A stretch of 58,008 nt of DNA, filler included, from an uncultured Myxococcia bacterium (GTDB taxonomy: Bacteria > CAZTWC01): assembly GCA_964617105.1 (NCBI GenBank). It is 3 parts of 3 records of this genome, joined end to end, with 100 filler letters (N's around TTAATTAATTAA, not from the genome) between each part and the next. Parts side by side here need not be neighbours in the genome. Positions count along the whole stretch, not along the records: positions 1 to 19,557 come from CAZTWC010000038.1; 2 more parts are not named here. One strand, 5' to 3'. Numbering within the stretch: the first letter of the stretch is position 1; the number at the start of each line of letters is the position of its first letter. A program made the translations under genes and the position numbers. Of this stretch, positions 1 to 19,557 are shown piece by piece. Under the pieces are notes generated by a model, which did no database searches, had not been told where the DNA came from, and saw only the letters and a list, made by a program, of their open reading frames with translations.

Positions 1-2
1 AA

Positions 3-1040
3 CAGGCGGAAGCAATTTTTCGTCAAACCGGCAACAGCACTATCCTGTTTGTGGATGAGATCCACCGCTTCAACAAAGCTCAACAGGATGCCTTTTTACC
101 CTTTGTGGAGCGGGGTGAAATAATATTAATTGGTGCGACTACAGAGAATCCCTCTTTTGAGATCATTACCCCCCTGTTGTCCAGGCTGCAAATTTTTCGG
201 CTGGAACAATTAACCGAAGAAGATATCGGGCAGATTCTTAAAAATGCCCTGGATTCATCCACAGGGTACAACGGTCAATATCCTCAAAACCAGGAGGTGA
301 TCTCCTTTATCATCTCCAGATCTGGAGGCGATGGCCGCCGCGCCTTGATGATGATGGAAATAGTGATTAGGGAATTAGGCGATAATCAGGCTGACCAAGA
401 GAAATTGGAACAAATATTCTCCTCCACCTCCTTTTGGTATGACAAGCGGGGAGATCAACATTTCAATCTAATCTCCGCCCTGCATAAAAGTCTGCGCAAC
501 AGTGATCACCAGGCCTCCCTTTACTGGTTGGCCAGAATGTTGACCGCTGGAGAAGACCCTCTCTATATTGCCAGACGCATGGTGCGTTTTGCCAGTGAAG
601 ATGTGGGGCTGGCTGATCCACAAGCGCTCCAGGTGGCCATGGCTGCTAAAGATTCGGTTCACTTTTTAGGAATGCCGGAGGGTAACCTGGCCCTGGCCCA
701 GGCGGCAGTCTATCTTGCCACCGCGCCTAAGAGCAATGCTCTCTACTTTGCCTATAAAAAAATTGAAAAGGATTTGAAAAAAGGGAAAGCTTTTCCCCCG
801 CCTCTGCATATCTGTAACGCCCCCACTTCGCTGATGAAAAAAGAGGGGTATGGCAAAGGTTACCAATATGCACACAATCTAAAAGAGAAGGTGGCCAATA
901 TGGAATGCCTGCCATCTCAATTATCGGGGACCGTCTATTATCAACCCGGCCCAATGGGATTTGAAAAGAGTATTGCCGCCCGAATAGACTATTGGCAGCG
1001 AATGAAAGATGGGCTGCATAAAGAGCAAGATGACCAATAG
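3..1040 (+). CDS. rarA: Replication-associated recombination protein A (RarA/MgsA AAA+ ATPase), 5'-truncated by window edge
   Basis: Walker B region ILFVDEIHRFNKAQQD, GATTENP, ISALHKSLR, ASEDVGLADP, GYQYAH; frame is open back to position 3. Confidence 0.95.
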   Translation, partial: QAEAIFRQTGNSTILFVDEIHRFNKAQQDAFLPFVERGEIILIGATTENPSFEIITPLLSRLQIFRLEQLTEEDIGQILKNALDSSTGYNGQYPQNQEVISFIISRSGGDGRRALMMMEIVIRELGDNQADQEKLEQIFSSTSFWYDKRGDQHFNLISALHKSLRNSDHQASLYWLARMLTAGEDPLYIARRMVRFASEDVGLADPQALQVAMAAKDSVHFLGMPEGNLALAQAAVYLATAPKSNALYFAYKKIEKDLKKGKAFPPPLHICNAPTSLMKKEGYGKGYQYAHNLKEKVANMECLPSQLSGTVYYQPGPMGFEKSIAARIDYWQRMKDGLHKEQDDQ

Positions 1041-1049
1041 TATCAACAA

Positions 1050-1967
1050 CTAGCCAATAATCGAAGTCAAAGCCTCTTGCAGAAGATATGAGCATCCCTG
1101 GCGCCGGTATTGCACTGATGAGCGGATATCGTCAATGGGGGTGGCTTCCAGCGCCACCTGGTGGGCGGCCTGGGTAATTAGTTCCTGGGTCAAAGAGGAG
1201 CCGGCCAGCATCTTTTCGGTTTCAGGCGCCCTGATTACGGTGGGGGCCACTGCTCCCAGGGCGATTCTGGCCTCAACTATCCGGGCCTGGCCTTTATCAT
1301 TATCATCTCGTTCTATTCTGGTCCACAAAGCCAAAGAAACTTTGGAGATGGCCAGGGCAGCTCTCTGTCCCAGCCGTAAAAAACGATGAAACGTTTCCTG
1401 GCCCTTCCGGGCCGGAGTTTTATCCGTCATCTGACCTACCCGACCAAGAGGGGTGAAATTGACTCTGGTGAGTAGTTCGTCATCCTCAACTATCGACTGG
1501 CCAGGGCCGGTAAAAAAATCTTCTATGGCCACCTGCCGTTCTCCCTGACTGCTCGATCTCAAAATTACCGAAGCTGCCAAGGTATATAGAGGCGGAATTA
1601 GATCGCCGGCTGGTGAGGCGTTGGCCAGATTTCCCCCCAGGGTGCCGCGGTTGCGAATTTGGGGTGAACCAATCAGAGCCGCTGCTTCACATAGGCCTGG
1701 TGCATGTTGGGCCAGAAGGGGCGAGCCGGCAATCTGGCTGTGAGTGGTCAGAGCGCCCATACTGATAAGACCATTCTGAAGGGAGATCCCCTTCAACTCC
1801 TCTAAGGAAACAATGTTAATAAACTCCAGCCCCAGACGGGGAGTATCTTTAAACCTTACCAGTAAATCGGTGCCACCAGCCAGGATAAAGGCCTGGTTTC
1901 TCTTTTCAGCCATTCGTACCAGACACTTGTCCAGGCTTTTGGGAGTATAAGTTATGGGATCTATCAT
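1050..1967 (-). CDS. Xanthine dehydrogenase-family FAD-binding subunit (CoxM/XdhB-like)
   Basis: LAGGTDL, SPQIRNRGTLGGNLANASPAGD, PIDDIRSS motifs; clustered with Mo and Fe-S subunits. Confidence 0.93.
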   Translation of the reverse strand: MIDPITYTPKSLDKCLVRMAEKRNQAFILAGGTDLLVRFKDTPRLGLEFINIVSLEELKGISLQNGLISMGALTTHSQIAGSPLLAQHAPGLCEAAALIGSPQIRNRGTLGGNLANASPAGDLIPPLYTLAASVILRSSSQGERQVAIEDFFTGPGQSIVEDDELLTRVNFTPLGRVGQMTDKTPARKGQETFHRFLRLGQRAALAISKVSLALWTRIERDDNDKGQARIVEARIALGAVAPTVIRAPETEKMLAGSSLTQELITQAAHQVALEATPIDDIRSSVQYRRQGCSYLLQEALTSIIG

Positions 1968-1975
1968 ACTGTTCT

Positions 1976-2761
1976 CTAATTTTTATTGAGTATATCTATC
2001 ATTTTAGCCATTATACTCACCGCAATCTCAAAAGGAGTCTTGGATTTGATGGGCAAACCCATGGGCGAGTCTATCCTGGCTAACAAAGAATCATCCACTC
2101 CTTGCTGGCTGAATTTTTGGAAAATTTTATCCCGCTTCCGCTTGGAAGATATCATCCCCAGGTAGTTGTAGGGCTTTTCCACCAAATTGCGCAACACTAC
2201 CTCATCATGGGCATGGCCATAGGTCATAATAGCCAAAAAATCCCGGGGACTGGTCTGCAAATCCTGCGAAATCTGCTCAAAATCCCCCAGCATCACCTGG
2301 GCTCCGGGAAAATTATTTTGGTTGGCCCACTCAGGGCGATGATCAACCACCAGGCATCTAAATCCCTGCTTAATAGCCAGGGATGCCAGTTCCCGGGACA
2401 CATGACCGGCGCCAAAAATAACCAGGCGTTGGGCAGAAAGGAGCGGTTCGATAAAAATGGTCATTTTACCGCCGCACAACATCCCTATCCCTTTCCCATC
2501 TTCTCCCCCGGCTCCCTCTTCGAAAATTTCAAACTCTTTTAGGCAGGGTTTTCCCTCTTGCAAAGCCGATACCGCCTCTTTAATAGTCAGCAACTCCACC
2601 TTGCCGCCGCCTATGGTACCCCGGATCTGTCCTTCCGGGTCAACCAGCATGTGAGAACCCGTCCCTCGCGGAGTTGAACCCTGGGCATTTACCACGGTAA
2701 CCAGAGCCACATCCAAATTTTGCTGCAAATAGTTACTTAGATCATCAATAATTTCTCGCAT
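1976..2761 (-). CDS. xdhC: XdhC/CoxI-family molybdenum cofactor insertion accessory protein
   Basis: GSTPR, GTIGGG, GMLCGG, IFGAGHV, YLGMISS, SPMGL, TPFEIAVSI. Confidence 0.92.
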   Translation of the reverse strand: MREIIDDLSNYLQQNLDVALVTVVNAQGSTPRGTGSHMLVDPEGQIRGTIGGGKVELLTIKEAVSALQEGKPCLKEFEIFEEGAGGEDGKGIGMLCGGKMTIFIEPLLSAQRLVIFGAGHVSRELASLAIKQGFRCLVVDHRPEWANQNNFPGAQVMLGDFEQISQDLQTSPRDFLAIMTYGHAHDEVVLRNLVEKPYNYLGMISSKRKRDKIFQKFSQQGVDDSLLARIDSPMGLPIKSKTPFEIAVSIMAKMIDILNKN

Positions 2762-2765
2762 AGTA

Positions 2766-3218
2766 TTATCCTTTCACTTGTTCTGCTGCCTCCATCACCC
2801 TTTGATACCCGGTGCAGCGGCATAAATTACCGGAGATGGCAGTGGCCACCTCAAGCCGGTCAGGGTGGGGATTCTGTATAAATAGGGCTTTTAAGGAAAT
2901 CACCAATCCGGGAGTGCAAAAGCCACACTGAACCGCTCCCTGGTCAATAAAAGCCTGTTGAAGCACATCCAGTTTTTCGCCATTACTTATCCCCTCGATA
3001 GTGATAATCTCTGCCCCCTCCACCTGGCTGGCCATCACCAGACAGGAGTTTACCGCCAGACTATTAATAAGCACTGTGCAGGCTCCACACTCCCCTTTTC
3101 CACATCCCTCTTTGGTGCCAATCAAGCCAAACTTCTGGCGCAATAGATCCACCAACCGCAAGTCATACTCCAACTCCACTACCTTTTGCTCACCGTTTAT
3201 GCTAAAATTTATTTCCAA
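2766..3218 (-). CDS. Xanthine dehydrogenase-family 2x[2Fe-2S] subunit
   Basis: GTKEGCGKGECGACTV, VNSC, QCGFCTPG, GNLCRCTGY; TTG start. Confidence 0.95.
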   Translation of the reverse strand: MEINFSINGEQKVVELEYDLRLVDLLRQKFGLIGTKEGCGKGECGACTVLINSLAVNSCLVMASQVEGAEIITIEGISNGEKLDVLQQAFIDQGAVQCGFCTPGLVISLKALFIQNPHPDRLEVATAISGNLCRCTGYQRVMEAAEQVKG

Positions 3219-3253
3219 TTTTTATCTCAACTTTCGATCTAACCAAGAACTAA

Positions 3254-5581
3254 TTACTCTTCATTTAAATTGGCCAGAGCGGCCAGCATTCTCTCCGGGG
3301 TGGCCGGGATGGTGGTCAGCCTGACGCCGGTAGCGTGATAAATGGCATTGGTAATAGCAGGCGCTACTCCCATCAAAGGTTGTTCACCAAAACCTTTGGC
3401 CCCGTAAGGCCCCTGTTCAAAAGCACTTTCTACTATCAGCGGCTCCACCTGTGGCGCATCCAAAGATGATGGGATTATATAGGTAGAAAAATTGGTATTT
3501 TGCATCTCTCCCGCCGGATTGTGCAAAATCTCCTCCATAGTGCCGTACCCAGCACCTTGAACTGTGCCCCCCTGAATCTGCGCCTCCACCTGGTCTGGAT
3601 TTATGGCCTTACCTACATCGTGGGCAGCAATAACTTTTATTACCTTTACTTCGCCGCTTTGGGTATTTACCTCAACTTCAGCGATATTGGTAGCCCAGGC
3701 ATAAGTCATGTAAGCCTTGCCCCGGCCAGTTTCAGCATTCCAGTCCATTGACGGCACTTTGAACCAGCCGTGTCCTGACAACTGCCGTTTCTTTTCAGCA
3801 CAGCCTTTTATCACCTGGCTGATTTTTATCCCTGGTTGCCTACTATCTTTAAAAACCATCTCCTGTCCCCGGATCTCCAACTCCTCTATAGCCACCCCGC
3901 CCAACATTATTGCTCCCTCCAGAAAAAGGGAATGTCGGATGGGCCGGCAAGCATCGATAAGAGCATTGCCCGATACGGTGGTGGCGCGGGAAGCTACTGT
4001 GGGACCGCTGTCTGGAACACGGGAGGTATCAGCCGGATCCATCCTTACATTGACATAATCTATCCCCAACTGCTGGGCTACTATTTGGCTTAACACCGTG
4101 GTCATCCCCTGGCCCATTTCGGTGGTGCCCACCGCAAAACTGGCGCTGCTGTCAAACTCTAACTGCACATATGCCCCCGCCCGGGAGAGCTTATGTCCTG
4201 CTGATCCAAGCCCAACTCCATAATAAATAGTGGAAATTCCTAATCCTTTTTGAATCCATTTCGGTTTTTTTTTGGTTTTATCGCAACTGTTATCCTGTCT
4301 GGCATTGTCCTGTTCAAAGAGCCGACGCCGCTGATTCCAATCCGACTTCTCCAGCGCCTTTTCTAAAGTTTCGCCAATGCCTACGCTGCTTTCCAGTTGC
4401 TGGCCAGACCCGGTAAAGTCGCCTGATTTGAGGATATTAAGCCGTCTGATCTCAGCCGGATCCATCCCCAACTTAGCAGCCAACATATCCATGGCCGACT
4501 CCACGGCAAACAGGATTTGGGGAGAGCCAAAACCGCGAAAAGCGCCGCAAGGCACTTTGTTGGTGGCAACAGCATAGGATTTAAGCCACACATTGGGTAC
4601 CTGGTAAGATCCAAAAGCGTGGATAGTTCCTCGCCAGAGCACCACCGGACTTAGGGTGCTGTAGGCGCCGGCATCCAAAATGTAGGTCACCTGAGCGGCC
4701 AGCAATTTTCCCTGCCCATCGGCAGCCAGGCGGTAACGAATATGACCTGGATGGCGTTTACTCATGGATACCATATCCTCTTCCCGGGTATAGATCAATT
4801 TCACCGGCCGGCCGGTGTGCCAGGCTGCCAACGCCGCCTGGGACGCCACTAGCGAAGGAACATCCTCCTTACCGCCAAAAGCGCCGCCCGTAGTGGTCTG
4901 TATCACCTTAACCCGGCTCAATTTCATCCCCAAAACCTCGGCAACCCCTTCCCGCACATAAAAGGGACACTGCATAGAGCCATAAATCTCTATTCCGGTG
5001 GCGCCAGGCACCGCCACCATTCCCTGAGGCTCCAGGTAGGCATGCTCTTGGTATGGGGTGTGAAATTCGGCCTGCACTACGGCAGCCGCCTCCCCAAAAG
5101 CGCTATCCACATCACCGTATTGGTTGTGATATTTACTAAAAATATTATCCTGGCCGTAAATTTTGGGGGCATCTTTTGCCATGCCCAGCTCGGCATCCAA
5201 CACCGCCTCCATAGGTTTACACCGCACCACCACCTTTTGAGCGGCAAAACGCGCCATATCCCTGGTGGTAGCCGCTACCACCGCCACCGGCTCACCACAA
5301 TATCTGACCTCTTTTTCTGCCAGGCAGGGTTGATCGCGCAGTACAACCGGCACAATATTGCACCCAGGTATATCAACGGCGGTAAAAACCCCTTTTACCT
5401 GAGATAATTCATCAAGAGCCGAACTATCCAGACCCTCTATAACTCCCCGGGCCACCGGGCTTCTTACCACGGCAGCATATAATTGCCCGCTAAAAGAGAT
5501 ATCATCAATAAACAAAGCCTGGCCCCGCACTTTGGCTTTGGCATCGGTTCTGGGCAACCGGGATCCCACAAATTCGGACAT
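3254..5581 (-). CDS. Xanthine dehydrogenase-family molybdopterin-binding subunit
   Basis: QEHAYLEP, GGAFGGK, AFRGFG, EMGQG, TVASR, AKGFGE (catalytic Glu retained); substrate not determinable from motifs. Confidence 0.93.
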   Translation of the reverse strand: MSEFVGSRLPRTDAKAKVRGQALFIDDISFSGQLYAAVVRSPVARGVIEGLDSSALDELSQVKGVFTAVDIPGCNIVPVVLRDQPCLAEKEVRYCGEPVAVVAATTRDMARFAAQKVVVRCKPMEAVLDAELGMAKDAPKIYGQDNIFSKYHNQYGDVDSAFGEAAAVVQAEFHTPYQEHAYLEPQGMVAVPGATGIEIYGSMQCPFYVREGVAEVLGMKLSRVKVIQTTTGGAFGGKEDVPSLVASQAALAAWHTGRPVKLIYTREEDMVSMSKRHPGHIRYRLAADGQGKLLAAQVTYILDAGAYSTLSPVVLWRGTIHAFGSYQVPNVWLKSYAVATNKVPCGAFRGFGSPQILFAVESAMDMLAAKLGMDPAEIRRLNILKSGDFTGSGQQLESSVGIGETLEKALEKSDWNQRRRLFEQDNARQDNSCDKTKKKPKWIQKGLGISTIYYGVGLGSAGHKLSRAGAYVQLEFDSSASFAVGTTEMGQGMTTVLSQIVAQQLGIDYVNVRMDPADTSRVPDSGPTVASRATTVSGNALIDACRPIRHSLFLEGAIMLGGVAIEELEIRGQEMVFKDSRQPGIKISQVIKGCAEKKRQLSGHGWFKVPSMDWNAETGRGKAYMTYAWATNIAEVEVNTQSGEVKVIKVIAAHDVGKAINPDQVEAQIQGGTVQGAGYGTMEEILHNPAGEMQNTNFSTYIIPSSLDAPQVEPLIVESAFEQGPYGAKGFGEQPLMGVAPAITNAIYHATGVRLTTIPATPERMLAALANLNEE

Positions 5582-5591
5582 CTTTAAACTC

Positions 5592-6920
5592 CTAAAAATT
5601 TTCCCAAATTTCAGTGGCCAACTCGGTGGCCCTGGCTGCCAGCCTGGGCTGGTCTATATCTATCTTTAATTGCCTATCTTTCATGAGTACTTTACCGCCA
5701 CAGATGGTGGTGTTGACAAAGGACTGAGAAAGACCAAAGGCCAGATGTCCCATAAAGGAATTACTATCAAAAGGAGTAGGGGAAAAATAATCTATTAGGA
5801 TAATATCAGCAGCATTTCCCTCTTTTAATTGCCCCAGTCCTATATCCCAATATTTATTGGCAATAACCGCGTTGTTGACCAGCAGAGTGTTCAAGGATTC
5901 ACAAAATCCCTTCGAAGGGTTGTTTTTCTCCAGGTGATGTAGCCACAGGGCCGCCCTGACCTCCTCCATCATGTTGACTGTCATGGCATCGGTGCCCAGG
6001 CCAACGCAAAGTCCCTTTTCAGTCATGCCGATAATATCGGCTATACCCACGGCGTTGTTGGTGTTGGATTGGGGATTGTGCACCACCGCACTACCGCTTT
6101 TTTGGATTAACTCCATCTCCGATTGGTCAATATGGACACAGTGGGCAGTAATCGACTTTGGTCCCAACAGGCCAAACTTATCCAGCCGCTCTACCACCCT
6201 GATGCCATAATTTTTCAGACTGTATTCCTGATCAGACAAGGCCTCTGCTGTATGGATATGGAAACCGGTATCCAACCCCTGAGCCGCCTCTCTGACGGCT
6301 TGCAGGGTTTTATCACTCAGGGTAAAGGCGGCATGTAAGCCAAAAAGCCCCCGTAAATAGGGGTCATTTTCAGTTTGACATCTACGCAAAAAATCAACAT
6401 TTTCCTGGATCCCATCCTGGGCCACCTTCTCTCCATCACGATCAGAAACCTCGTAACATAGGCTAGCCCTTATCCCCACCTCTTTGACCGCTTTGGCGAT
6501 AATATTCAGAGAACCACGGACCGCTCCCGGGCTGGCGTGGTGGTCGATAATAGTGGTGGTTCCTCTGCTGACGGCATCGATTAAGGGCAGCATGGCGCTG
6601 ACATAACAACCTTCCAGAGTTAGCAATTTATCCAATTTCCACCAGAGGTTATTTAGCACTTCCACAAAGTTGGTAGATGGTTGAATTTTATAGAGCCCCC
6701 GGGCCAGGCTGCTGTAAAAATGCATGTGAGCGTTGATAAAACCGGGCATAACCACTTTACCCCCGGCATCTATAATCTGTTGGTAGGAGCCGGTAAAATC
6801 GGAATCTGGTCTAATTTTACTGATTTTATCTTCCTCAATCAACAGAGAATGCCCGTTAAGCACTTGATTTTCCAGACCTAAGGTGACAATAGTACCGTTT
6901 TTTATTAAAATGTCAGTCAT
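5592..6920 (-). CDS. ssnA: SsnA-family putative aminohydrolase (amidohydrolase superfamily)
   Basis: PGFINAHMHFYSSLARG, WWKLD, GTTTIIDHHASP, GLHAAFTLSD, HNPQSNTNNAVG, LGTD. Confidence 0.9.
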   Translation of the reverse strand: MTDILIKNGTIVTLGLENQVLNGHSLLIEEDKISKIRPDSDFTGSYQQIIDAGGKVVMPGFINAHMHFYSSLARGLYKIQPSTNFVEVLNNLWWKLDKLLTLEGCYVSAMLPLIDAVSRGTTTIIDHHASPGAVRGSLNIIAKAVKEVGIRASLCYEVSDRDGEKVAQDGIQENVDFLRRCQTENDPYLRGLFGLHAAFTLSDKTLQAVREAAQGLDTGFHIHTAEALSDQEYSLKNYGIRVVERLDKFGLLGPKSITAHCVHIDQSEMELIQKSGSAVVHNPQSNTNNAVGIADIIGMTEKGLCVGLGTDAMTVNMMEEVRAALWLHHLEKNNPSKGFCESLNTLLVNNAVIANKYWDIGLGQLKEGNAADIILIDYFSPTPFDSNSFMGHLAFGLSQSFVNTTICGGKVLMKDRQLKIDIDQPRLAARATELATEIWENF

Positions 6921-6984
6921 TATTCTTTATCCTTCCTGATTCGGTTCTACTATTTCACGGGAACTCATAAATTGATTAACAGGC

Positions 6985-9505
6985 TCAATCCTCCCGTAAG
7001 GCCGCTTTTTCAGCAGCATCTCTCTGGCGCATATAGAGAGCGCCAGACACACATTTTTTTACGCATATAGAGCAGCCAATGCATCGGGAAGGATCGGTTT
7101 TAGGTATTTTATCATTATCCAAAGATACCGCCAAATAGGGACAGCGGGTGCAGTTGCCGCAAGAGATGCATAGATCTCCATTAACACAGGATACTTTTTT
7201 GTCTGCCGGTAACTCCATAAAGTCAGCAATGGGGTTGGGTAAGGCTCTACCTATCAACTGGGATACCGACTCAATGCCCCGCTGCTGGAGAAGGTGACTG
7301 AGGCCGGAGCACAACTCGTGGATAATATCATACCCATATTTCATGGCCAAAGTGCAAAACTGCACGGTGCTGGCGCCCAAAGCCAGGAAATTGGCCGCAG
7401 CCAGATAATCCATGGGACCGCCGTTTCCGGAAATGGTCACGCCCAGAGGGGCGGCATTGGCCAGGGTCATGTAACTGATGGGGGTAATGCCGTCACCGCT
7501 CATCCCAACCACGATCCCCGGGTCCCACCCAGGTTGACCGCTATCGCCAGCTCCCTTGTCATCTCTACGAAAGGCCAGGCTGGGAAAAGAGTTAGCCAGG
7601 GTAACACCGGCCTTTTTATCAGGAAAACCGGCCAGGGTTTGGTTAACCGCCATTATAATCGGCTTAATGGAGGTCACCGCCCCGGTCATCTTGAACAGTT
7701 TAGGTACCTGGGGTTGGGAGGCTTCCATTATCCAGCCAATAATTTTGGCAGTCAAAGCAGCATTCTGGGAGACAATATCTCCTTCGGTGCCGTCCCCGCC
7801 CTGAGGACAAGAGAGACTGTATTCAATACTCATGGCGCCGGCGTCTTCCAACATTCTGGTATTCTCTTGCCAGATTTGTCTATCGGCCTGGTCGTCACCG
7901 GTCACCGGACCGCCGGTAGACGCTATGGTCAGCCGGTCTGGGTATTTTTCCACCAACTGTTCCACCTCCCGGCAAATCCGATCTAGAGGATGTCCTGAGA
8001 CATTATCGCAATTAGCATAGGTCAGCCGGTNNNNNNNNNNGAATATGGATGGGTAATCCGTTAAAAGCGGTTTTCATAACCCCACCGGCCCAACCGGCCT
8101 GATAGGCCTTCTCCATCTGCTCCAAGCCGTCAGTGGGCGGAGCGGCAGAAAGTAAAAAGGGCGAAATCAGAGCCCGGCCGAAATAATCGGTTTCCAAATC
8201 CACCGGAACCTGGTGGTAACCGGGTATGGTAAAAGTGCTTTTAATATTGCTATCTTCTGGTTTGGAAGTATCTGGGGCAGTTTGCTGCAAAGCGGCGGAC
8301 AGTTTGATGGCCGCATTTTTACCAGAGGCCACCGCCTCCACCACAGTAGTGGGGCCATTGTGGCAGTCACCGGCATAGACTATATGTTCCTTGACGCTAT
8401 CAGATTGTTTAAGAGGCATATTTCTACTGCCAATAGCCACGATTATCAGGTCAATATCATCTCGCACCTGCACAGTGCCCTCTTGGTCACTAATTTTAGT
8501 CAAATCGAAACTATCACCATCTAACTCAATCCTTTTTAATTTGAGTCGGGAGATCTTATCATTGCTACTCTCTATGGAAACTAACTTGCAACGTCCGGTA
8601 ATCTCCACCCCGGCCAGGATAATCTCTTCCCGTTCATCCTGGGTCAAAGGCATCTCACCCGCTTTTTCCAAACAAACCATCTCCACTGAAGAGCACCCTA
8701 TACTGCTGGCAATCAACGCACAGTCAGCAGCGGTAGCGCCGCCGCCAATCACCATAACTTTACCTGAAGCCTGGTCTGTGCCCAGATGTTTTTTTGGCCG
8801 GGCTAAAAAATCGAGTCCGCTCACAGTAGTCTCTTCACCGGGGATGCCCAATTTTATTGGCGCCATTAGGCCGGTGGCCGCCACCACTCCATTATAGCCC
8901 TGGGTAAAAAAATCACTTAGATCTTGTATAGCCTGTTGAGTAAATAGGTTTATCCCATCCAGGGAGAGAATAAACTCCAAATCTCTGTCCAACACCTCTT
9001 GGGGAAGCCTTTGGGAGGGGATAATATTGCACATCCCGCCAGCGGTTTCTCCCTGTTCATAAATATCAACTTGAAAGCCCAACTGAACCAGGCTGGCAGC
9101 AGCCGCCAGGCCGGCCGGGCCAGCCCCCGCTATGGCCACTTTTTGACCGTTTTTCTTCCTGGCCATAAAATTGGGAGTCTGTCCTATTTGGCTGGCTTTT
9201 TCAATGATAGTCATTTGCACCGATGGGATATCCACCGGCTGGTTAAGTTTCTTATACACACAGGCGCTCATGCAGTGTTGGTCGGGACATACCGCCCCGC
9301 ACACTCCTCCCAGAGGATTGCAACTTAAAATCATGGCCGCCGCCCTCTTCAGGTCAGCCGGCTCCATTTTTCTGGCCGCCATGATAAAATCAGCCGGACT
9401 GCAGTGAGCCGGACATTTATCCTGGCACGGTTTCTCCTGGCAATATTCACACTTCTCCATCTCCTGACGCAATTGTGCATCGCTTAATAGACCTTTTTTC
9501 AACAT
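6985..9505 (-). CDS. Single-chain dihydropyrimidine dehydrogenase-like flavo-Fe-S oxidoreductase (PreT-like + PreA-like + 2x[4Fe-4S]); one gene interrupted by the 10-N gap at 8031-8040
   Basis: N-terminal CEYC/PCQDKCP/CGAVCP Fe-S motifs and GAGPAG, GGGATAADC nucleotide motifs run into the FMN-barrel start SPFLLSAAPP...GGVMKT. The downstream frame is open up to the gap (RLTYANCDNVSGHPLDRICREVEQ), then SLSCP, GNGG and two ferredoxin-type Cys clusters. Confidence 0.85.
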
Positions 9506-9520
9506 AATTTTTTTGTCACC

Positions 9521-11338
9521 TTATTTTCTTTCTTGAACGCCATCCAATAGGCCAAAAGCGTTGGTATCCAATTCGGCGGCATTGGCTTCATCAGTATCCA
9601 AATGCATGGCCAGTTTGGCTTTGTCGCTTACTCGAACGTGAACTCCGCCAAATATAACTTCCCGCTCTCCCGGAATCTTGATCCGTACCACATCCTGGTT
9701 ACACAAACTGTATTTCTTGGCGTCTTCCGAAGTCATATGGATATGTCGTAAGGGACAAATAACCCCCTTTTCCATTTTTATCCTGTCCTCGTTGCCCTCC
9801 AACACAATACCGGGAGTATTGTCCAGTTCGCCGGAAAGCCTTAGCGGAGCATCGATACCAAGCCTGCACTCTTCGGTTCTGGTTATCTCCACCTGAGTTT
9901 TTTCCCGCACCGGCCCAATGATGCGGACATGAGGAATCATATCACGGGGGCCAATCAAGGTTACAGTTTCCTCGGCTACAAACTGTCCTGGTTGAGAAAT
10001 ATCCCTGGTTTTGGTAAGAGTATAACCTTGGCCAAAGAGTTTTTCCAAATCTTCCTGGCAGAGGTGGATGTGTTGATCAGCGGTGATAATCGGCACTTTA
10101 AACTCCTCTTGAACCCTGTCCTCGCTGGCCTGCTGATATCCAACCCGGGTGGCGGTTTCCCTGGCAATCATCAAATCTTCTCTGGTTTTGACCACCAAAA
10201 CCTTGGTCTTGGATGAATCGCTGTGAATCTCAAATATCCCACTGTTATTCGGATTCCGAAAAATATTTTTCATCTCATCCAGGGCCACTCCCATCAAATC
10301 TAATCCCTGACAAGTCCTGGCCCGGATTCCCTTGGAGTTTTCGCCAATACCGCCGGTAAAAATCAAAATATCCAGATGACCCAAAACCGCGGCATAGGCG
10401 CCGATATATTTTTTCAACCGGTAGCAAAAAATCTGGATAGCCAGCAGGGCCTGGTAATTACCATTGTTGGCCTCCTCCATAACCTGCCGTATATCGTTAC
10501 TTAAACCGGATATTCCAGTCAATCCGCTCTGTTTGTTTAACAGTTTGTCGGTTTCGTCTATTGACAGTCCCAACTGCTTTTGTAGAACCAGCACCAGGGC
10601 GGGATCGATATCTCCGCAGCGGGTTCCCATAATCAGTCCCTCCAAAGGTGTCAAACCCATGCTGGTGTCGATGGAGCGTCCCTTTTCGATAGCACAGATA
10701 CTGGCGCCATTGCCCAAATGACAACTTATTATATTCAGCTCGTTCATCTCCTTGCCCAGATATTCGGCGGCCTTGTTAGCCACATAGGCGTGTGAAGTGC
10801 CGTGAAAACCGTAGCGGCGAAAGCCATGATCCCGGTATAAGTTGTAGGGAATGCCGTAAACATAGGCCCTCGCTGGCATAGAGGAATGAAAGGCGGTATC
10901 AAAAACAGCCACATGAGGAATATTGGGCATCAATTCCTGGCAAGCATCAATACCAGCCAGATTGATGGGATTGTGCAAAGGAGCCAGGTCAATACACTTT
11001 TTAATTTGCTCTTTCACTTCCGGGGTAATCACTCTGGAACTGGTCATCTTTTCACCGCCGTGCACTACCCGATGGCCCACTGCCTGAATCTCCTCCAGGT
11101 TGCTCAGAACGGGATTATCCTTCGCCACCAGGTTATTCAGGGCAAGTCTAACCGCTGCCAGGTGGTCTTTTACCTCTTTCACTTCCTTAACGGTCTGAAC
11201 ATCTTTCATAAAGGTATGGGCGCTGTCTTTCTGGCCGATATTTTCCACCAACCCTCCAGCCAGTTTTTCCCCTTCCTGGACATTGATGAGATCATATTTC
11301 AACGATGAACTTCCGCAATTAATTATTAGTATTATCAT
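9521..11338 (-). CDS. ackA: Acetate/propionate kinase fused to a C-terminal PduL-type phosphotransacylase
   Basis: AckA motifs NCGSSSLK, HRVVHGG, APLHN, FDTAFH, YGFHGTSH, CHLGNGAS, TGGIGEN. Last ~191 aa (9524-10096) carry PduL motifs HIHL, SQPGQF, QVEI, RHIHM, MHLDTDEANAA. AAGGAG RBS precedes ATG 11338. Confidence 0.92.
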   Translation of the reverse strand: MIILIINCGSSSLKYDLINVQEGEKLAGGLVENIGQKDSAHTFMKDVQTVKEVKEVKDHLAAVRLALNNLVAKDNPVLSNLEEIQAVGHRVVHGGEKMTSSRVITPEVKEQIKKCIDLAPLHNPINLAGIDACQELMPNIPHVAVFDTAFHSSMPARAYVYGIPYNLYRDHGFRRYGFHGTSHAYVANKAAEYLGKEMNELNIISCHLGNGASICAIEKGRSIDTSMGLTPLEGLIMGTRCGDIDPALVLVLQKQLGLSIDETDKLLNKQSGLTGISGLSNDIRQVMEEANNGNYQALLAIQIFCYRLKKYIGAYAAVLGHLDILIFTGGIGENSKGIRARTCQGLDLMGVALDEMKNIFRNPNNSGIFEIHSDSSKTKVLVVKTREDLMIARETATRVGYQQASEDRVQEEFKVPIITADQHIHLCQEDLEKLFGQGYTLTKTRDISQPGQFVAEETVTLIGPRDMIPHVRIIGPVREKTQVEITRTEECRLGIDAPLRLSGELDNTPGIVLEGNEDRIKMEKGVICPLRHIHMTSEDAKKYSLCNQDVVRIKIPGEREVIFGGVHVRVSDKAKLAMHLDTDEANAAELDTNAFGLLDGVQERK

Positions 11339-12416
11339 GGGCAACTCCTTTTATGTTTTCTATGAACCATTTTTCAAACTCTGGATTAAAATAGATCACT
11401 CTCTGTTTCTTGAATTCCCTGGTACTCAGACATATCCTATAATTGGTTTGGCCCGAAGCCGCAGTCATATGCTCCACGATCGCCTCCAGATCTTCCCTGC
11501 TCCTGGCGTGAATCATAGTGTAAAGTTGGTAGGGCCACTGTGGGAATGAATTTCTTATATAACAATGACTTACCGGTTTATAAGAGGAAAACTTGCGCCC
11601 CAGATTGTCCAGATCTTTATCATCCACCTGCCAGGTCACCATGCCGTTAAATAGAAAACCACTTTTCCGGTGGTCCAATATGGCAGAAATGCGGCGCAAA
11701 ATCCCCTTTTCCTGCATCACTTGAAGCCGCTTAACCAACTCATCCTGGCTGATACCAAGGGTAGTGGCCGCCTCTTTAAAGGGATAGCGCACAAGTTGTA
11801 TCTCTTTTTGGACTTGACAGATTATCTGCCGGTCCAACTGGTCATAACTACGTTTGATAGCATCATCTCTGACCCCCCCTTGATCCTGGTTAATTTCAAG
11901 ATCCTGATCTTTCTCCCCTTTCTCCCGGTTCTTAAGATCTAGCACCACCCCGATTTTAAAACGTTTTATGGTTTTGAACAGAAGCAGATCTTGGCAGAGG
12001 GGCTGAGCACGAAAATACTCAGTTACCGCTTCAAAAGAAAGACCCGGAGGGACTGCCAGAGTAAACCACAATTGATAGGGAACATCCCTCTGGTAATTGT
12101 GGCTGACACCAGGGCAACGATTTATAATATGAGACATCTCCTCTTCCTGGCCGGGTTTCACTTTCATGGCCAGCAGGGAGCTAGAAAAGCCCATGGCGGT
12201 GGTGTCGAATATGGCAGAAAATTTACGGATAATGCCCGCTTTTTTAAAATACTCTATGGCTTGCCACACATCTTCCACCGACAGATTCAATTGACGGGCA
12301 ATTACCTGGAAAAGATGTTTATCAATGGGCTGAGGTCGTTGAAGATGGTCGAGAATTCTGACCTCTTTTTGAGTCAACATTTGCCGTCGAGTGAGCATCG
12401 GATTAGAAGTTGCCAT
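11319..12416 (-). CDS. Fused siroheme decarboxylase AhbA/AhbB (NirDL-like, two Lrp/AsnC-like halves)
   Basis: First half VSHNYQRD..LWFTL..FKIGV; second half VSHCYIRN..WPYQLYTMIHAR..STREFKK. Confidence 0.88.
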   Translation of the reverse strand: MATSNPMLTRRQMLTQKEVRILDHLQRPQPIDKHLFQVIARQLNLSVEDVWQAIEYFKKAGIIRKFSAIFDTTAMGFSSSLLAMKVKPGQEEEMSHIINRCPGVSHNYQRDVPYQLWFTLAVPPGLSFEAVTEYFRAQPLCQDLLLFKTIKRFKIGVVLDLKNREKGEKDQDLEINQDQGGVRDDAIKRSYDQLDRQIICQVQKEIQLVRYPFKEAATTLGISQDELVKRLQVMQEKGILRRISAILDHRKSGFLFNGMVTWQVDDKDLDNLGRKFSSYKPVSHCYIRNSFPQWPYQLYTMIHARSREDLEAIVEHMTAASGQTNYRICLSTREFKKQRVIYFNPEFEKWFIENIKGVAHDNTNN

Positions 12417-12446
12417 TTACTTGCTCGAAAAAGAACCAGATTTGGT

Positions 12447-13400
12447 TTAGTTATTTAAAATTTTATCAATTTTTTCCGGTGCCCATGATTGCCCGGTAAG
12501 ACGGCAATAGGATAAACAACGCTCCTGGATCTGCTCCCGGTTTAGAGAGGTTATCCCCTCCAGGCTAAAATGTTCCACATTGAAAGAAGCCAATACTGTA
12601 CCAAAAATAGTGGCCAATTGAATATCCTGGAAAGAGAGGGCCTGTTGTCGTTCATATAAAAGGGACAAAACCCCCATGGTGCCACCAGCAAAAGTATCTC
12701 CCGCTCCGGTGGGATCCACCACCTCTTGCAAAGGATAGGCTGGAGCGATATATAGGTAATCCTTATACTTTATGATCAGTCCATATTCCCCTCGCTTAAC
12801 AACCAATATTTCCGGTCCCATCTGCTGAACCTTTTTAATGGCCCTGAAGATATTGTCTACATTGCTCAACATCCTCACTTCCCCATCGTTGATAACCAAC
12901 ATATTTACCTGTTTTAAAACTCGGGATAATTCTTTAGGGGTGCCCTGTATCCAAAAATTCATGGTATCAATGGCCACAAATTTAGCGCCTCCGGCCTGTT
13001 TCACTACTGTTTCTTGTAGAGAGGGGTGAATGTTGGCCAAAAACAACACCGGTATCTGACTATCAACCTGGGAGAGACGGGGTTTAAAATCTTGAAAAAC
13101 ATTTAATTCAGTGGTAATAGTTTCCGCCTGGTTCATATCGCCACTGTATTTGCCTTCCCAAAAAAAGGTTTTTCCTTCAGCCAGTACTTCCAAACTATCC
13201 AGGTTAACCCCTTTTGAACTTAACAAATCAATATGTTTTTTAGGAAAATCTTCCCCTACCACCGCCACCACCTTAGACTGAGTAAAATAGGAGGAGGCCA
13301 CTGAAAAATAGGAGGCAGAACCTCCCAGGCACCTCTCCCGTTTACCAAAAGGTGTTTCAACCGTATCCAGGGCTACCGAACCTACAACTAATAAGGGCAT
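12447..13400 (-). CDS. PfkB/ribokinase-family sugar or nucleoside kinase
   Basis: VGSVALD, LGGSASY, DTMNFWI, VKRGEYG, DPTGAGDTFAGG; start taken at MPLLVVG. Confidence 0.9.
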   Translation of the reverse strand: MPLLVVGSVALDTVETPFGKRERCLGGSASYFSVASSYFTQSKVVAVVGEDFPKKHIDLLSSKGVNLDSLEVLAEGKTFFWEGKYSGDMNQAETITTELNVFQDFKPRLSQVDSQIPVLFLANIHPSLQETVVKQAGGAKFVAIDTMNFWIQGTPKELSRVLKQVNMLVINDGEVRMLSNVDNIFRAIKKVQQMGPEILVVKRGEYGLIIKYKDYLYIAPAYPLQEVVDPTGAGDTFAGGTMGVLSLLYERQQALSFQDIQLATIFGTVLASFNVEHFSLEGITSLNREQIQERCLSYCRLTGQSWAPEKIDKILNN

Positions 13401-13560
13401 GGTTTTTTCTCCTATAACTAAGACAACCGCGACAACCGCCAGATTTTCCATATTACATTTTATTATTTATTAAACTAGTTAATTTAAACAGGGAAATTTA
13501 TCAAAGTCAAATTAATTCAGACTGATACAGCAGGCTGGTTGCGGATCTGAGCCTTTCAAC

Positions 13561-13589
13561 TTGACAATTGTGGAATAAGGGGATATTTT
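13561..13589 (+). promoter_or_regulatory. Putative sigma70 promoter for the cytochrome/porin genes
   Basis: TTGACA (13561-66), 17-bp spacer, TATTTT (13584-89); same -10 hexamer as the putative groES promoter. Confidence 0.5.
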
Positions 13590-13596
13590 ACCTCCT

Positions 13597-14496
13597 ATGA
13601 ATAATAGAGATGTTACAATCTACCGGATAATAAAATCAGGCTGGAAAATAGGCTTAAAAGCCCTTCTGTTTCTACTTTTTGTTACTTTTCTGTCTGTATG
13701 CGGCGATTTGCGCAACTTTCAGGATAAATCTGCCAATCGTGGAGAAAACGACTGCGCCTATTGCCATTACAACATCATGCCTCACGAGCCCCAGCCCTCC
13801 CATTGCGGAAAGGACTTGTGCCAGACCGATTGCCGGCCCAACTATTCCCATTGCGGTGATGATTGCCCCGATTGTCCCTGTGATTGCAAAAAAGAGGACG
13901 ACCTTCACAAAACCCATCTGGTCGAAGGTAATTTAACTACCCGTCTCCAGTGTCAAGACTGCCACCTTACACCTAAGCGCTGGGATGATATCGGACATTT
14001 GGATTCTCCTGCTCCAGCAGAGGTGGTATTCAGTTCAAAAGCCTCACGAGGCGGTCTAAATCCGACTTATACCAATAAAACCTGCAACAATATCTACTGT
14101 CACGGCGCTTCTATTAAAGGAGGGGGCAATGGATCGCAGATGAAATGGCAGGACTCTAAAAGTTTGCAATGCTCCTCCTGTCACGGCAATCCACCATCGG
14201 GACACCTGGAAAAAGTCAATAATTGCCAGGCTTGTCATCGCCTCAGTTTTCAGAACAACGACCTGGACAAAAAACGGCACATAAACGGCCGGGTGGAGAT
14301 GGTTCCTTTTGATTTTGAAACCGACACTCCCAACTGTGGAACCTGTCACAGTCTACCTCCCAATAACCAGCATACACCCGCCACAAAAGATTGTTCCCAG
14401 TGCCACCCCAAATATCCGCTCTACGACCCTGGCAAAGAGGATAAATCCAGCCAGTGGTCCACCCACATGAACGGAAAAATAGAGATAGTAAAATGA
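13597..14496 (+). CDS. Multiheme c-type cytochrome, CxxxxCH/CxxCH (Geobacter-type) domain; probable lipoprotein
   Basis: Six CxxCH (CAYCH, CQDCH, CSSCH, CQACH, CGTCH, CSQCH) plus CNNIYCH; HING/HMNG motifs; hydrophobic stretch ending LSVC. Confidence 0.9.
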   Translation: MNNRDVTIYRIIKSGWKIGLKALLFLLFVTFLSVCGDLRNFQDKSANRGENDCAYCHYNIMPHEPQPSHCGKDLCQTDCRPNYSHCGDDCPDCPCDCKKEDDLHKTHLVEGNLTTRLQCQDCHLTPKRWDDIGHLDSPAPAEVVFSSKASRGGLNPTYTNKTCNNIYCHGASIKGGGNGSQMKWQDSKSLQCSSCHGNPPSGHLEKVNNCQACHRLSFQNNDLDKKRHINGRVEMVPFDFETDTPNCGTCHSLPPNNQHTPATKDCSQCHPKYPLYDPGKEDKSSQWSTHMNGKIEIVK

Positions 14497-15830
14497 TAAA
14501 TAGACCCCCAAATTTCGCTTCAAAAAGGCGGACCGGCTGGAAAGTTTTCTGGTCGTTTTTTCAATCTCTGGTTGCTTTGTCAATAATCCTGGCAATTTTA
14601 TCAACCTGGTATTCACAGGCCTGGAGTACGGAATTATCTGCCCAAACCACCAGTTTTTTGCAGTTCAGGGCTGAAGACTATGAAAACCAGGTGACCCACC
14701 GAATCCCTTTTTGCCAGTATCTCAATCTCTACGGAATGGATTTAGCCGGGGCCCAGGGGCTGTCAATAGCCATTGGCGGGTGGGGGATGTACGACCTTTA
14801 CCAGTGGCGAACCAAAGATCGGGCTGATGGTGATCTTAATTTTGGCTATCTGGACTACCAGTTCATTGACGGGGTCTCTCTGCGCCTGGGTAGGCAATTT
14901 ATCTACGAAAGGGCTTCCCTGGTCAAACAGGTTGATGGACTGCGGCTGCAAATTAACGGCCTGGGCGGTTTTGGACTCAGCCTGTTTGGCGGAAATGTTT
15001 CACCGCCCCGATTCGATTACAGCCACAAATTTGGCCAGGATGATTACCTGGCCGGTGGACGTCTTTACTACCGGATGTTGGACATAGGACAGTTTGGTAT
15101 CTCCGCTGCGGTAACCACAGATGAAGGTTTTGTGTCTCGCGCCGATCTGGGGGTCGACTTTTCCCTGCGCTCATATAGATATTTTAACTGGGCCGTCCTG
15201 GAGGGCAGCGCCCTTATGGATGCTCCAGGCAAGCAATTAGCAGAATTAAATACCGTTATTCATCTCTACCCCCACCAGAATTTAGTCCTGGATATGGGTG
15301 TGAATCATTCCAAAATCGGCGCTTTGCTGCCCAAAACCTCTATTTTTTCGATATTTGCCGCCGACAATTACACCAAAGCCTATTTGGCTTTGAATTATCA
15401 GGCTTTGACCTTTCTCAACACCGGCCTGGAGGCCAGTCAAAGTTTCTTTGACCATGGCGAAAACGGATATGCGGCTGGTTTCCACTCGACCCTATACCTG
15501 GATCCCAAAAAACAAGATATGTTGGGAGTTAAACTATTTCGGGTCAAAGAGAAAACCAACGCCTTTTGGCGATTACGCAGTTTCTGCCTGTTCAATTTCA
15601 TCAACACCCTGTACACCACTTTTGAGTTGGAGGGGCTGATATTCGACCATAACCTACGGAACCAGTCTTATTCCTTAAGCAGTTATGGTTCCCTGGGCGC
15701 CCGTTTAGGGCCAGTTGAGTTGGCGGGTGAAATCGGAGTTTCCTCCAATCCAATTTTTGAACGGGAACTCTACGGAATGTTAAAATTGAGCCTGAACCGA
15801 CAAGTAAACTATTCAACTGCATCAAAGTGA
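14493..15830 (+). CDS. Putative outer-membrane beta-barrel (porin of a porin-cytochrome complex)
   Basis: Signal peptide (..SQAWS), LRLGRQF..VDGL motif, alternating aromatic/aliphatic strands; overlaps both flanking cytochrome genes by 4 nt. Confidence 0.7.
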   Translation: MINRPPNFASKRRTGWKVFWSFFQSLVALSIILAILSTWYSQAWSTELSAQTTSFLQFRAEDYENQVTHRIPFCQYLNLYGMDLAGAQGLSIAIGGWGMYDLYQWRTKDRADGDLNFGYLDYQFIDGVSLRLGRQFIYERASLVKQVDGLRLQINGLGGFGLSLFGGNVSPPRFDYSHKFGQDDYLAGGRLYYRMLDIGQFGISAAVTTDEGFVSRADLGVDFSLRSYRYFNWAVLEGSALMDAPGKQLAELNTVIHLYPHQNLVLDMGVNHSKIGALLPKTSIFSIFAADNYTKAYLALNYQALTFLNTGLEASQSFFDHGENGYAAGFHSTLYLDPKKQDMLGVKLFRVKEKTNAFWRLRSFCLFNFINTLYTTFELEGLIFDHNLRNQSYSLSSYGSLGARLGPVELAGEIGVSSNPIFERELYGMLKLSLNRQVNYSTASK

Positions 15831-16903
15831 ACAACAATATCATGGCAAAATATAGAGTTACCGTTCTTTTGCTGGCTTTTTTGGCGATTATTTTACTTTT
15901 TGCGGCCTGCCGCTATTTTGTGGATAAATCGGATCAGATAATTTTTTCCCACCAGACCCATCTGGACCAGGGGAAGGAGTGTCAAAACTGCCATAGCGAA
16001 ATAGAGGAAGCCACCTCCCTGAATACCAGTTTTTTACCCAAAAAGGCTACCTGCGAGCGGTGCCATCTAGAGGTTATGAATAAGTGCGAAAGGTGTCACA
16101 CCAACCCTCAACAGGCATCCACCTATCTGGTGCGAGAGCACAAGTTAAACTTCTCCCACCAAAAACATTTAAAAACCGAAAACTCCGCCAAAGAGAAAAT
16201 AAAAGGTAAATCGCAGTGTCTGGTCTGCCACCAACAGGCCGCTACTTCTAACAGCCACCATCTGGCTGGTCATCAGGAGTGCAGCGGTTGTCACCAGGAA
16301 AGGCTGGACAAATTAAACTGCTCTGCCTGCCACATAGACCTGCACCGTTATACCAAAAAACCAACCCGGTTCTTCAGTCACAAAGGTAATTTCAGTCGTA
16401 ATCACGGTCAGATGGCCAAATCTGGTTCCGATGTTTGCCGCCAGTGCCATCATACAGGTTTTTGTTCTGACTGCCACAGCCAGCGGGATAATCTCAGACC
16501 CTCGGTTAAAAATCGGGGAAAAATGGAAAGTAATTTTATTCATAGAATGGATTGGTTGTCCCGCCACAGCGTAGAAGCCAGATTAGACCCTAATTACTGC
16601 TCCAAATGTCACGGCAGCAGCAGTTGTCAGGATTGTCATACCCATCACGGCATCGCTCCCAACTCCGAAAAGAAATTCAACAACCATCCCCAGGGTTGGG
16701 TAACACTTCATGGCTCAGCCGCCAGGCGGAATATAGTCAGTTGCGCCGCCTGCCATGACCAGGGTGCGGCCAGCAATTGTGTCCGCTGCCACAAAAGCGG
16801 CAGTATAGGCGGTAATCCGCATCCACCGGGCTGGGACAGTTCTATCAACCAATCTAACCGCCGGATGTGCAACATCTGCCATAAAGCAGGCATCGCCCCC
16901 TAG
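15827..16903 (+). CDS. 13-heme c-type cytochrome lipoprotein (cytochrome c3/c7-like repeats)
   Basis: 13 CxxCH motifs counted; FSHxxH distal-ligand motifs; lipobox FAAC. Confidence 0.92.
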   Translation: MNNNIMAKYRVTVLLLAFLAIILLFAACRYFVDKSDQIIFSHQTHLDQGKECQNCHSEIEEATSLNTSFLPKKATCERCHLEVMNKCERCHTNPQQASTYLVREHKLNFSHQKHLKTENSAKEKIKGKSQCLVCHQQAATSNSHHLAGHQECSGCHQERLDKLNCSACHIDLHRYTKKPTRFFSHKGNFSRNHGQMAKSGSDVCRQCHHTGFCSDCHSQRDNLRPSVKNRGKMESNFIHRMDWLSRHSVEARLDPNYCSKCHGSSSCQDCHTHHGIAPNSEKKFNNHPQGWVTLHGSAARRNIVSCAACHDQGAASNCVRCHKSGSIGGNPHPPGWDSSINQSNRRMCNICHKAGIAP

Positions 16904-16914
16904 AAGATGCGCTG

Positions 16915-18965: not shown

Positions 18966-18992
18966 TTTATTACCTCTTTTGCTCCACGGGAA

Positions 18993-19400: not shown

Positions 19401-19557
19401 AACTAAAATCTCTGTAACAAAAGTCACCAGATCTTTAAGTGCACTAACCGCAGGTGAGCAATTAAGAATATTTCTAATTAATGTTGCTGAATTTTTTTTT
19501 GTATGAAAATTATAGTTTTCATTAAGATAACCACTGTAAATTGTATTTGACCAAAAA

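Follow-up and report, generated by a model that had tools for sequence, protein, structure and literature searches.

The reductive route of urate breakdown was worked out as late as 2025, in bacteria of the gut (PMC12507026; bioRxiv 10.1101/2025.04.24.650524). As described by Li et al. (2025, PMC12507026), XdhD-YgfM converts urate to 2,8-dioxopurine, which in vitro is turned into ureidomethyl-hydantoin by SsnA together with YgfK or UacX, a PydA homologue that takes the place of YgfK in C. difficile. In the account given there, UacX has no domain besides that for flavin mononucleotide (FMN) and is probably ferredoxin-dependent, the active-site residue Glu606 of XdhD is highlighted, and the neighbourhoods of SsnA hold YgfK, UacX (PF01180) or an F420-type enzyme. 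The word 'fused' is absent from the main text of that paper, although fusions may be depicted in its Fig. 3c and Supplementary Fig. S1a. The pathway was named by Liu et al. (bioRxiv 10.1101/2025.04.24.650524), who also linked it to the selenium markers YqeB, YqeC and SelD. In this study, we report the analysis of a nine-gene run located in a 58,008-nucleotide stretch of DNA (the window) from the assembly of an uncultured Myxococcia bacterium (GCA_964617105.1). Six of its genes, from window position 9505 to 1050, probably form the upper module, the one that attacks the ring, of the pathway for reductive breakdown of uric acid via 2,8-dioxopurine ('yanthine'). In this module, a fused enzyme of the dihydropyrimidine dehydrogenase (DPD) type is predicted to perform the step of YgfK or UacX.

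The window consists of three unrelated contigs (C38, C39 and C40) joined by runs of N at 19558-19657 and 38826-38925. Physical contiguity holds only for positions 1-19557 (contig C38), and features past 19557 are not neighbours of the operon. The assembly comprises 489 contigs with a total of 4.07 Mb, and is 96.5% complete with an estimated contamination of 3.35%. Eight public sequencing runs matched window positions 8041-13600, all of them marine or seawater DNA.

A fused DPD-like flavoprotein beside SsnA

The SsnA protein of the window scores above both curated family cut-offs over its full length and is 33.7% identical to E. coli SsnA. A survey with this protein against one genome per species yielded 80 loci from other species (54-65% identity), all of them in metagenome-assembled genomes, from the Elusimicrobia, Ignavibacteria, Bacteroidota, Armatimonadota, Acidobacteria, Verrucomicrobia and other lineages. 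A gene for the fused DPD-like protein was located directly upstream of ssnA, and co-oriented with it, in 73 of the 80 loci; among the seven exceptions, four had less than 300 nt of upstream sequence, one carried the gene downstream and two were without it. The gene was a single uninterrupted open reading frame (ORF) in 60 of 64 full-length cases. Further pathway genes in these loci were those for YgeY (29 loci), HyuA (14), YgeW (17) and a molybdenum (Mo) subunit of the xanthine dehydrogenase (XDH) family (22). The gene order in the Ignavibacteria locus L078, for example, was DPD-like, SsnA, YgeY, pyridoxal phosphate (PLP) enzyme, HyuA-like, Mo, FeS, YgeW, PLP enzyme and MocA-like. Linkage of ssnA to the fused gene, on which the first-pass annotation had built its reading, thus proved to be common rather than rare, with XDH-family Mo genes as less frequent companions. 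Forty genomes examined as relatives of the source organism were all related at the domain level only; an SsnA-like match was present in seven of them (39-48% identity), and no PreA- or UacX-like neighbour was found around these seven with the queries used.

In the assembly, a 10-N scaffold gap at 8031-8040 splits the DPD-like gene into two apparent ORFs that differ in frame (8012-9505 and 6985-7965). Contigs from two of four public marine metagenome DNA runs span the N run with 14 extra letters, and the contigs from the other two end on either side of it. The true gap is therefore 24 nt (8 codons), and by our own count the 24-nt bridge merges both frames into a single ORF of 844 amino acids (aa). 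Orthologues measure 812-880 aa and have about ten residues at the place of the N run. A real frameshift or a pseudogene was considered and rejected, given the N run and the bridging contigs.

The domain order of the protein is an N-terminal 4Fe-4S region, a flavin adenine dinucleotide (FAD)/NAD(P)H region, an FMN barrel and a C-terminal 2x[4Fe-4S] region, which is the layout of a single-chain DPD. Family matches were obtained to PF14691, PF07992, Fer4 and, weakly, PF01180; the last scored 21.9 bits (cut-off 27) in the truncated fragment of the window, and two intact orthologues gave 28.4 and 29.8 bits. The N-terminal part is co-linear with residues 73-363 of pig DPD and the C-terminal part with residues 631-849 and 914-996, which bears out the DPD architecture seen in the first-pass annotation. 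The C-terminal part remains well below the cut-off of the PreA model NF006183 (152.2 bits vs 335). The YgfK model TIGR03315 gave 146.2 bits vs 835.3, over profile positions 442-836 only, and in a BLASTP comparison with E. coli YgfK the GltD-like module alone aligned (25% over 439 residues), the domain order being permuted. YgfK was not found in the whole assembly, the top TIGR03315 score being 321 bits against the cut-off of 835.

For a comparison of the substrate pocket, 61 orthologues were aligned with E. coli PreA and the PreA of the assembly, using pig DPD numbering. In DPD, Asn609, Glu611, Asn668, Ser670, Cys671, Asn736 and Thr737 are pocket residues with roles in the binding of uracil. 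All 61 clade members, and the window protein as well, have Ser at the position of Asn668 and Asp at that of Glu611, whereas Asn and Glu are retained at these two positions by E. coli PreA and by the assembly's own PreA. The equivalents of Asn609, Ser670, the catalytic Cys671 and Asn736 are invariant in the 61 orthologues, and the Thr737 position holds Thr in 39 and Ser in 22 clade members. The window protein thus does not carry the pyrimidine-pocket residues of DPD as a complete set, Asn668 and Glu611 being changed, and the uniform Ser/Asp replacement fits an altered substrate.

A complete reductive pyrimidine cluster is present on another contig (C61, locus L006, 5675-15607), and comprises genes for MMSDH (semialdehyde dehydrogenase), a ureidopropionase-like protein, dihydropyrimidinase, an aminotransferase, PreT, PreA (549.8 bits vs the cut-off of 335) and ADH. 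The window protein is about 28-31% identical to these PreT and PreA proteins. Since the canonical PreT/PreA pair is encoded there, the DPD-like enzyme of the window can be regarded as a paralogue with another job. Together with the linkage in 73 loci and the absence of YgfK from the assembly, this upholds the earlier proposal of a DPD-type enzyme at the reduction step, a replacement of a kind already published (PMC12507026, as far as described there). The pyrimidine cluster ends with a YgeW/OTC-like carbamoyltransferase (250.7 bits vs the YgeW cut-off of 453), which is an odd member in that position.

Close relatives of the DPD-like protein are named 'dihydropyrimidine dehydrogenase subunit PreA' in public sources. 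In addition, six stand-alone proteins of 361-438 aa (P0137, P0150, P0153, P0157, P0210 and P0224), whose genes lie on contigs between 117 kb and 1.5 Mb long, match the C-terminal FMN/Fe-S half of the reductase at 66-70% identity. A split two-gene form of the fused reductase family probably also exists.

Molybdenum hydroxylase, selenium markers and lower-pathway genes

The hydroxylase of the operon has the MoCoBD_1, MoCoBD_2 and hammerhead domains of the XDH family together with separate 2Fe-2S and FAD subunits. Its Mo subunit scores below every NCBIfam equivalog cut-off, the top model being pucD (502 bits vs 783.65), and so is not placed among the canonical XDHs; its top match in the Protein Data Bank (PDB) is chain B of R. 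capsulatus XDH (1jro_B, 374 bits). The equivalents of R. capsulatus Gln197, Glu232, Arg310, Phe344 and Glu730 are retained, and Phe459-Thr460 of canonical XDHs are replaced by Leu-Gly. In the same numbering, Glu232, Arg310, Phe344, Phe459, Thr460 and Glu730 make up the purine-binding set of canonical XDHs. A quick tree built from 24 Mo subunits placed the window enzyme as the sister of one from an Elusimicrobiaceae genome (46% identity, SH-aLRT 98), within a group of Mo genes in or beside ssnA clusters. This ssnA-linked group was separate from E. coli XdhA, XdhD and the canonical XDHs with the 'ISFT' motif; the tree is provisional, with several long branches. The window protein does not resemble an XdhD-type urate dehydroxylase at the 'GEGK' insertion that holds Glu606, where it has a gap.

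A second XDH-family operon (FAD, FeS, Mo, MocA) was observed on contig C161 (locus L007, 3105-7519), and its product may be the true urate dehydroxylase. Production of 2,8-dioxopurine by the Mo enzyme of the window is favoured on synteny grounds, and is put at roughly even chances.

The trait of a selenium-dependent Mo hydroxylase is defined by the presence of YqeB, YqeC and SelD together in a genome (bioRxiv 10.1101/2025.04.24.650524). SelD is encoded on contig C90 (11607-12533, 360 bits) with one in-frame TGA, which is probably read as selenocysteine. No match to YqeC (TIGR03172) or YqeB (TIGR03309) was obtained in the 96.5% complete assembly, which therefore does not show the trait. The absence of these two markers and the presence of xdhC in the operon point to a version of the hydroxylase without the labile-selenium cofactor, within the limits of that completeness.

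The lower pathway was searched for in the assembly with E. coli and Ignavibacteria protein queries and with family scans. A true YgeY gene was found in two parts, one at an end of contig C33 and the other at an end of C459 (TIGR03526, 351 bits vs 321.5 on the contig-end fragment), together with two hydantoinase-family genes (C61 and C202), the carbamoyltransferase already mentioned and a carbamate kinase gene on C209. A gene on C78 is 61% identical to a CysK-like PLP enzyme linked to ssnA clusters, and a gene on C2 passes the 8-oxoguanine deaminase model (634 bits vs 532). The first-pass annotation had noted that hyuA and ygeW/X/Y are missing from the cluster and had suggested a different route or substrate on that account. 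Their absence from contig C38 was confirmed, since the operon is flanked by rarA and cytochrome genes; the conclusion of a different route does not follow from it, as YgeY, hydantoinases, a carbamoyltransferase and carbamate kinase are encoded elsewhere. The search of the rest of the genome that it had proposed thus located part of the pathway genes, no YgeX lyase, YqeB, YqeC or YgfK having been found in the assembly. A weak match to TIGR01747 (39 bits vs 274) was rejected as YgeX, being the single ThrC-like gene of the assembly in a housekeeping context.

A tblastn search of the 80 surveyed loci with the E. coli YgeX protein (E at most 1e-10) likewise detected no YgeX-type lyase. In 22 of these loci the gene for YgeY is followed by a ThrC-like PLP gene, and in 20 that for YgeW by a CysK-like PLP gene of 481 aa (e.g. 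L078, L075, L074 and L062); both enzymes are candidate replacements for the last step of the pathway. An amidohydrolase 55% identical to the 8-oxoguanine deaminase of C2 is encoded beside the DPD-like/SsnA pair in 19 of the 80 loci at an identity of at least 45%, mostly in the Elusimicrobia (L021, L025, L028-L032, L034, L037, L038, L046, L047, L051, L053, L081, L086, L089, L090 and L092). A count of 62 of 80 for this gene was discarded as inflated by cross-hits to SsnA. The presence of this neighbour hints at oxidised guanine as one entry substrate.

Organisation of the operon and its upstream genes

ORF listing and family scans placed nine co-oriented genes on the minus strand between window positions 1050 and 13451 (Table 1). 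The successive intergenic gaps, from the end of the PfkB gene to that of the FAD subunit, are 30 nt, an overlap, 15, 64, 10, 35, 4 and 8 nt, and the ORF coordinates agree with the first-pass annotation in that no gap exceeds 64 nt. The operon is bordered by a convergent rarA fragment at one end and, at the other, by multihaem cytochrome genes in divergent orientation. The divergent genes (13597-16903, plus strand) encode a multihaem cytochrome of 299 aa with CxxxxCH/CxxCH motifs, a 458-aa ORF for which the family scans gave no match, and a c7/MtrC-like multihaem cytochrome of 358 aa. A consensus scan returned 28 promoter-like sites (16.5 expected) and 25 terminator-like sites (14 expected), mostly intragenic, and gave no usable signal; it placed no terminator-like site in the intergenic gaps of the operon.

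Table 1. Genes of the nine-gene run, in order from its first gene (window coordinates)
Predicted product	Position	Strand	Matches and remarks
PfkB-family kinase	12447-13451	-	First gene of the run; PF00294, 75 bits; likely start 13400
Fused AhbA-AhbB sirohaem decarboxylase (alternative haem synthesis)	11319-12416	-	NF040708, 223.6 bits vs cut-off 140; NF040707, 216.5 vs 125
AckA-PduL fusion, 605-607 aa	9521-11344	-	PF00871, 510.5 bits (residues 5-395); PF06130, 231.2 bits (421-592); likely start ATG 11338
Fused DPD-like flavoprotein, candidate NAD(P)H:2,8-dioxopurine reductase	6985-9505	-	Pfam and NCBIfam matches
SsnA amidohydrolase (predicted to open the reduced purine ring)	5592-6920	-	NF005540, 541.8 bits vs 444; TIGR03314, 511.2 vs 455.5; residues 4-442
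Molybdopterin subunit, XDH-family hydroxylase	3254-5581	-	PF02738, 286.9 bits; PF20256, 253.7 bits; PF01315, 76.1 bits
2x[2Fe-2S] subunit	2766-3218	-	PF01799, 100.1 bits; PF00111
XdhC-type Mo-cofactor insertion chaperone	1976-2761	-	PF13478, 130.3 bits; PF02625, 72.8 bits
FAD subunit, predicted NAD(P)(H) entry point of the Mo enzyme	1050-1967	-	PF00941, 144.4 bits; PF03450, 74.2 bits

The three genes upstream of the DPD-like gene are probably co-transcribed housekeeping neighbours outside the purine module. None of them (AckA-PduL, AhbAB and PfkB) was found in any of the 80 ssnA loci, which does not support AhbAB and PfkB as members of the cluster as it was drawn at first. The sole PDB match of the PfkB protein is 3kd6, 'Carbohydrate kinase, PfkB family' (266.6 bits, residues 18-319), which is probably a nucleoside kinase; the start proposed in Table 1 fits an alignment that begins at residue 18. 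AhbAB is encoded by a single copy in the assembly and fits the neighbouring cytochrome genes.

Fusion of AckA and PduL was noted in 2016 by Erbilgin et al. (PMC4784909), who suggested that it represents a variant Pta-Ack pathway. The window protein shares with the fusions described there a PduL-type phosphotransacylase fused to acetate kinase and no encapsulation peptide. It would convert acetyl-CoA of any source to acetyl phosphate and then to acetate with formation of ATP. It is the only acetate kinase match in the assembly, in which two further proteins with a PTA_PTB domain are encoded elsewhere. Its best 120 database matches all have both domains and most of them also a cNMP-binding domain at the C-terminus, which the window protein lacks; a metagenome scan with AckA-PduL found no relative. 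The idea that this protein forms a pathway-specific ATP module was not supported, the fusion being common, absent from the surveyed loci and the sole acetate kinase match in the assembly.

Proposed route, alternatives and known systems

In the route suggested by these comparisons, the three-subunit Mo hydroxylase, matured by XdhC, would interconvert oxopurines, most likely converting urate to 2,8-dioxopurine with NAD(P)H via the FAD subunit, as E. coli XdhD-YgfM does. The 844-aa flavoprotein would then pass electrons from NAD(P)H through FAD and the Fe-S clusters to FMN and reduce C5=C6 of the pyrimidine half. The conserved Cys of its SLSCPQG motif would be the proton donor, in DPD chemistry applied to a pyrimidin-2-one fused to an imidazolone. 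Hydrolysis of the reduced ring by SsnA would pull the unfavourable reduction forward, a coupling demonstrated for proteins other than these, namely E. coli SsnA with YgfK or UacX (as described in PMC12507026). The ureido products may finally be taken to pyruvate by hydantoinase, YgeY, carbamoyltransferase with carbamate kinase, and PLP enzymes, all encoded on other contigs.

Several observations weigh against this route. The search of the assembly with E. coli YgeX (tblastn) and TIGR01747 revealed no YgeX-type lyase, and the sole ThrC-like PLP gene looks like a housekeeping gene. The lower-pathway genes are scattered and partly ambiguous, and the best hydantoinase lies within the pyrimidine cluster. 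The Mo subunit of C161 groups with E. coli XdhD (42% identity) and has both the GEGK/Glu606 insertion and a Gln at the Glu232 position, and a third, partial Mo subunit is encoded on contig C42. Contig C38 has a GC content of 0.48 against an assembly mean of 0.439 and ranks third from the top among the 122 contigs of at least 10 kb. Its tetranucleotide distance lies at the 88th percentile, and the FAD, Mo and DPD-like genes reach a GC content of 0.51-0.53. This excess could stem from horizontal origin or from mis-binning; the binning of C38 is not certain, and mis-binning would weaken the statements made on genes elsewhere in the genome.

Three other explanations were considered. The DPD-like/SsnA pair might act on another oxidised purine or N-heterocycle, either xanthine directly or a product derived from 8-oxoguanine, with the substrate set by the Mo enzyme of the window. 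The separate clade of the Mo subunit, with Leu-Gly in place of Phe459-Thr460, would agree with this, as would the XdhD-like enzyme of C161, which could be the urate dehydroxylase, and the 8-oxoguanine-deaminase-like neighbour in 19 loci. However, the product of 8-oxoguanine deaminase is urate, which feeds the known route; loci with the whole known lower pathway use the same pair, and SsnA reaches the score of an equivalog in the characterised family, so that we consider another substrate unlikely. The nine genes might also not be one functional unit, the run being a chance juxtaposition of housekeeping and purine genes with internal promoters, or C38 might come from another organism in the sample, as its base composition and the estimated contamination would allow. 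The absence of PfkB, AhbAB and AckA-PduL from all 80 loci is in keeping with the former, but gaps of at most 64 nt or overlaps, with no terminator-like site placed between genes, argue for one unit, and the six-gene purine module is united by synteny whatever the binning; we rate this explanation as quite improbable.

Very improbable, in our estimate, is a second reductive pyrimidine route, with the DPD-like enzyme acting on uracil or thymine, SsnA as the dihydropyrimidinase and the xdh genes as unrelated neighbours. The public PreA names of close relatives and the retained catalytic Cys and equivalents of Asn609, Ser670 and Asn736 speak for it. Against it stand the score of 152 bits against the PreA cut-off of 335 and the two pocket residues altered in 61 of 61 clade members, as well as the presence of PreT, PreA, dihydropyrimidinase, the ureidopropionase-like gene and the aminotransferase already together on C61. 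Moreover, YgeY, YgeW and Mo hydroxylases, none of which takes part in the breakdown of pyrimidines, are encoded together with the pair. The reductive urate route is thus retained as the probable function of the six-gene module.

The locus is the upper half of a known route, in a variant with a DPD-like enzyme for YgfK; since the logic of the pathway and the exchange of YgfK for PydA have already been published, the gain is incremental. What is new is modest, namely the full-length NAD(P)H-type architecture with the Ser/Asp signature, the separate Mo subunit clade and the lack of the selenium markers YqeB/YqeC. More tentatively, and at somewhat less than an even chance, the fused DPD-like proteins of about 810-880 aa may constitute a family of NAD(P)H-dependent 2,8-dioxopurine reductases marked by this signature. 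In free-living anaerobes (such as Elusimicrobiota, Ignavibacteriota and the present marine lineage), SsnA would usually be partnered by a member of this family, which would act with the Leu-Gly Mo clade matured by XdhC and without YqeB/YqeC.

If this were true, the reductive breakdown of urate and purines would be a common process outside guts, would not depend on selenium, and would routinely be mistaken in annotations for pyrimidine catabolism. The 73 syntenic relatives would make the fused DPD type a third reductase architecture, and the common one in environmental phyla. Annotations as 'PreA' or 'dihydropyrimidine dehydrogenase' beside ssnA should accordingly not be taken for pyrimidine enzymes. 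Such a route may also serve to recycle purine nitrogen in anoxic settings, both marine and in groundwater. As a candidate single-polypeptide, NAD(P)H-driven yanthine reductase, the enzyme could also suit engineered urate-lowering strains better than the Fe-S-rich YgfK or the ferredoxin-dependent UacX.

Compared with the described systems, the locus resembles the C. difficile UacX cluster in that an FMN enzyme of the DPD/PydA family replaces YgfK beside SsnA and XDH-family genes, and in the proposed reduction of the uracil-like half of 2,8-dioxopurine, drawn on by SsnA hydrolysis. It differs from that cluster, as described in PMC12507026, in a reductase with an N-terminal Fe-S and FAD/NAD(P)H module of its own, fused on in the order of pig DPD, and in a Mo enzyme with an FAD subunit, which C. 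difficile XdhD is without. With pig DPD and the bacterial PreT/PreA proteins, the reductase shares the five-domain layout, the cofactor motifs and the equivalents of Cys671, Asn609, Ser670 and Asn736; it differs from them by its score below the PreA cut-off, its Ser/Asp pocket and its genomic partner, which is SsnA instead of dihydropyrimidinase. With the E. coli ygfK-ssnA-ygfM-xdhD genes, the locus has in common an SsnA orthologue, an adjoining Mo/FeS/FAD hydroxylase and a reductase that is likely NAD(P)H-dependent. In contrast to E. coli, the reductase is not YgfK, the Mo subunit is without the Glu606 insertion, YqeB, YqeC and ygeX were not found in the assembly, and the lower-pathway genes are not adjacent to the upper module.

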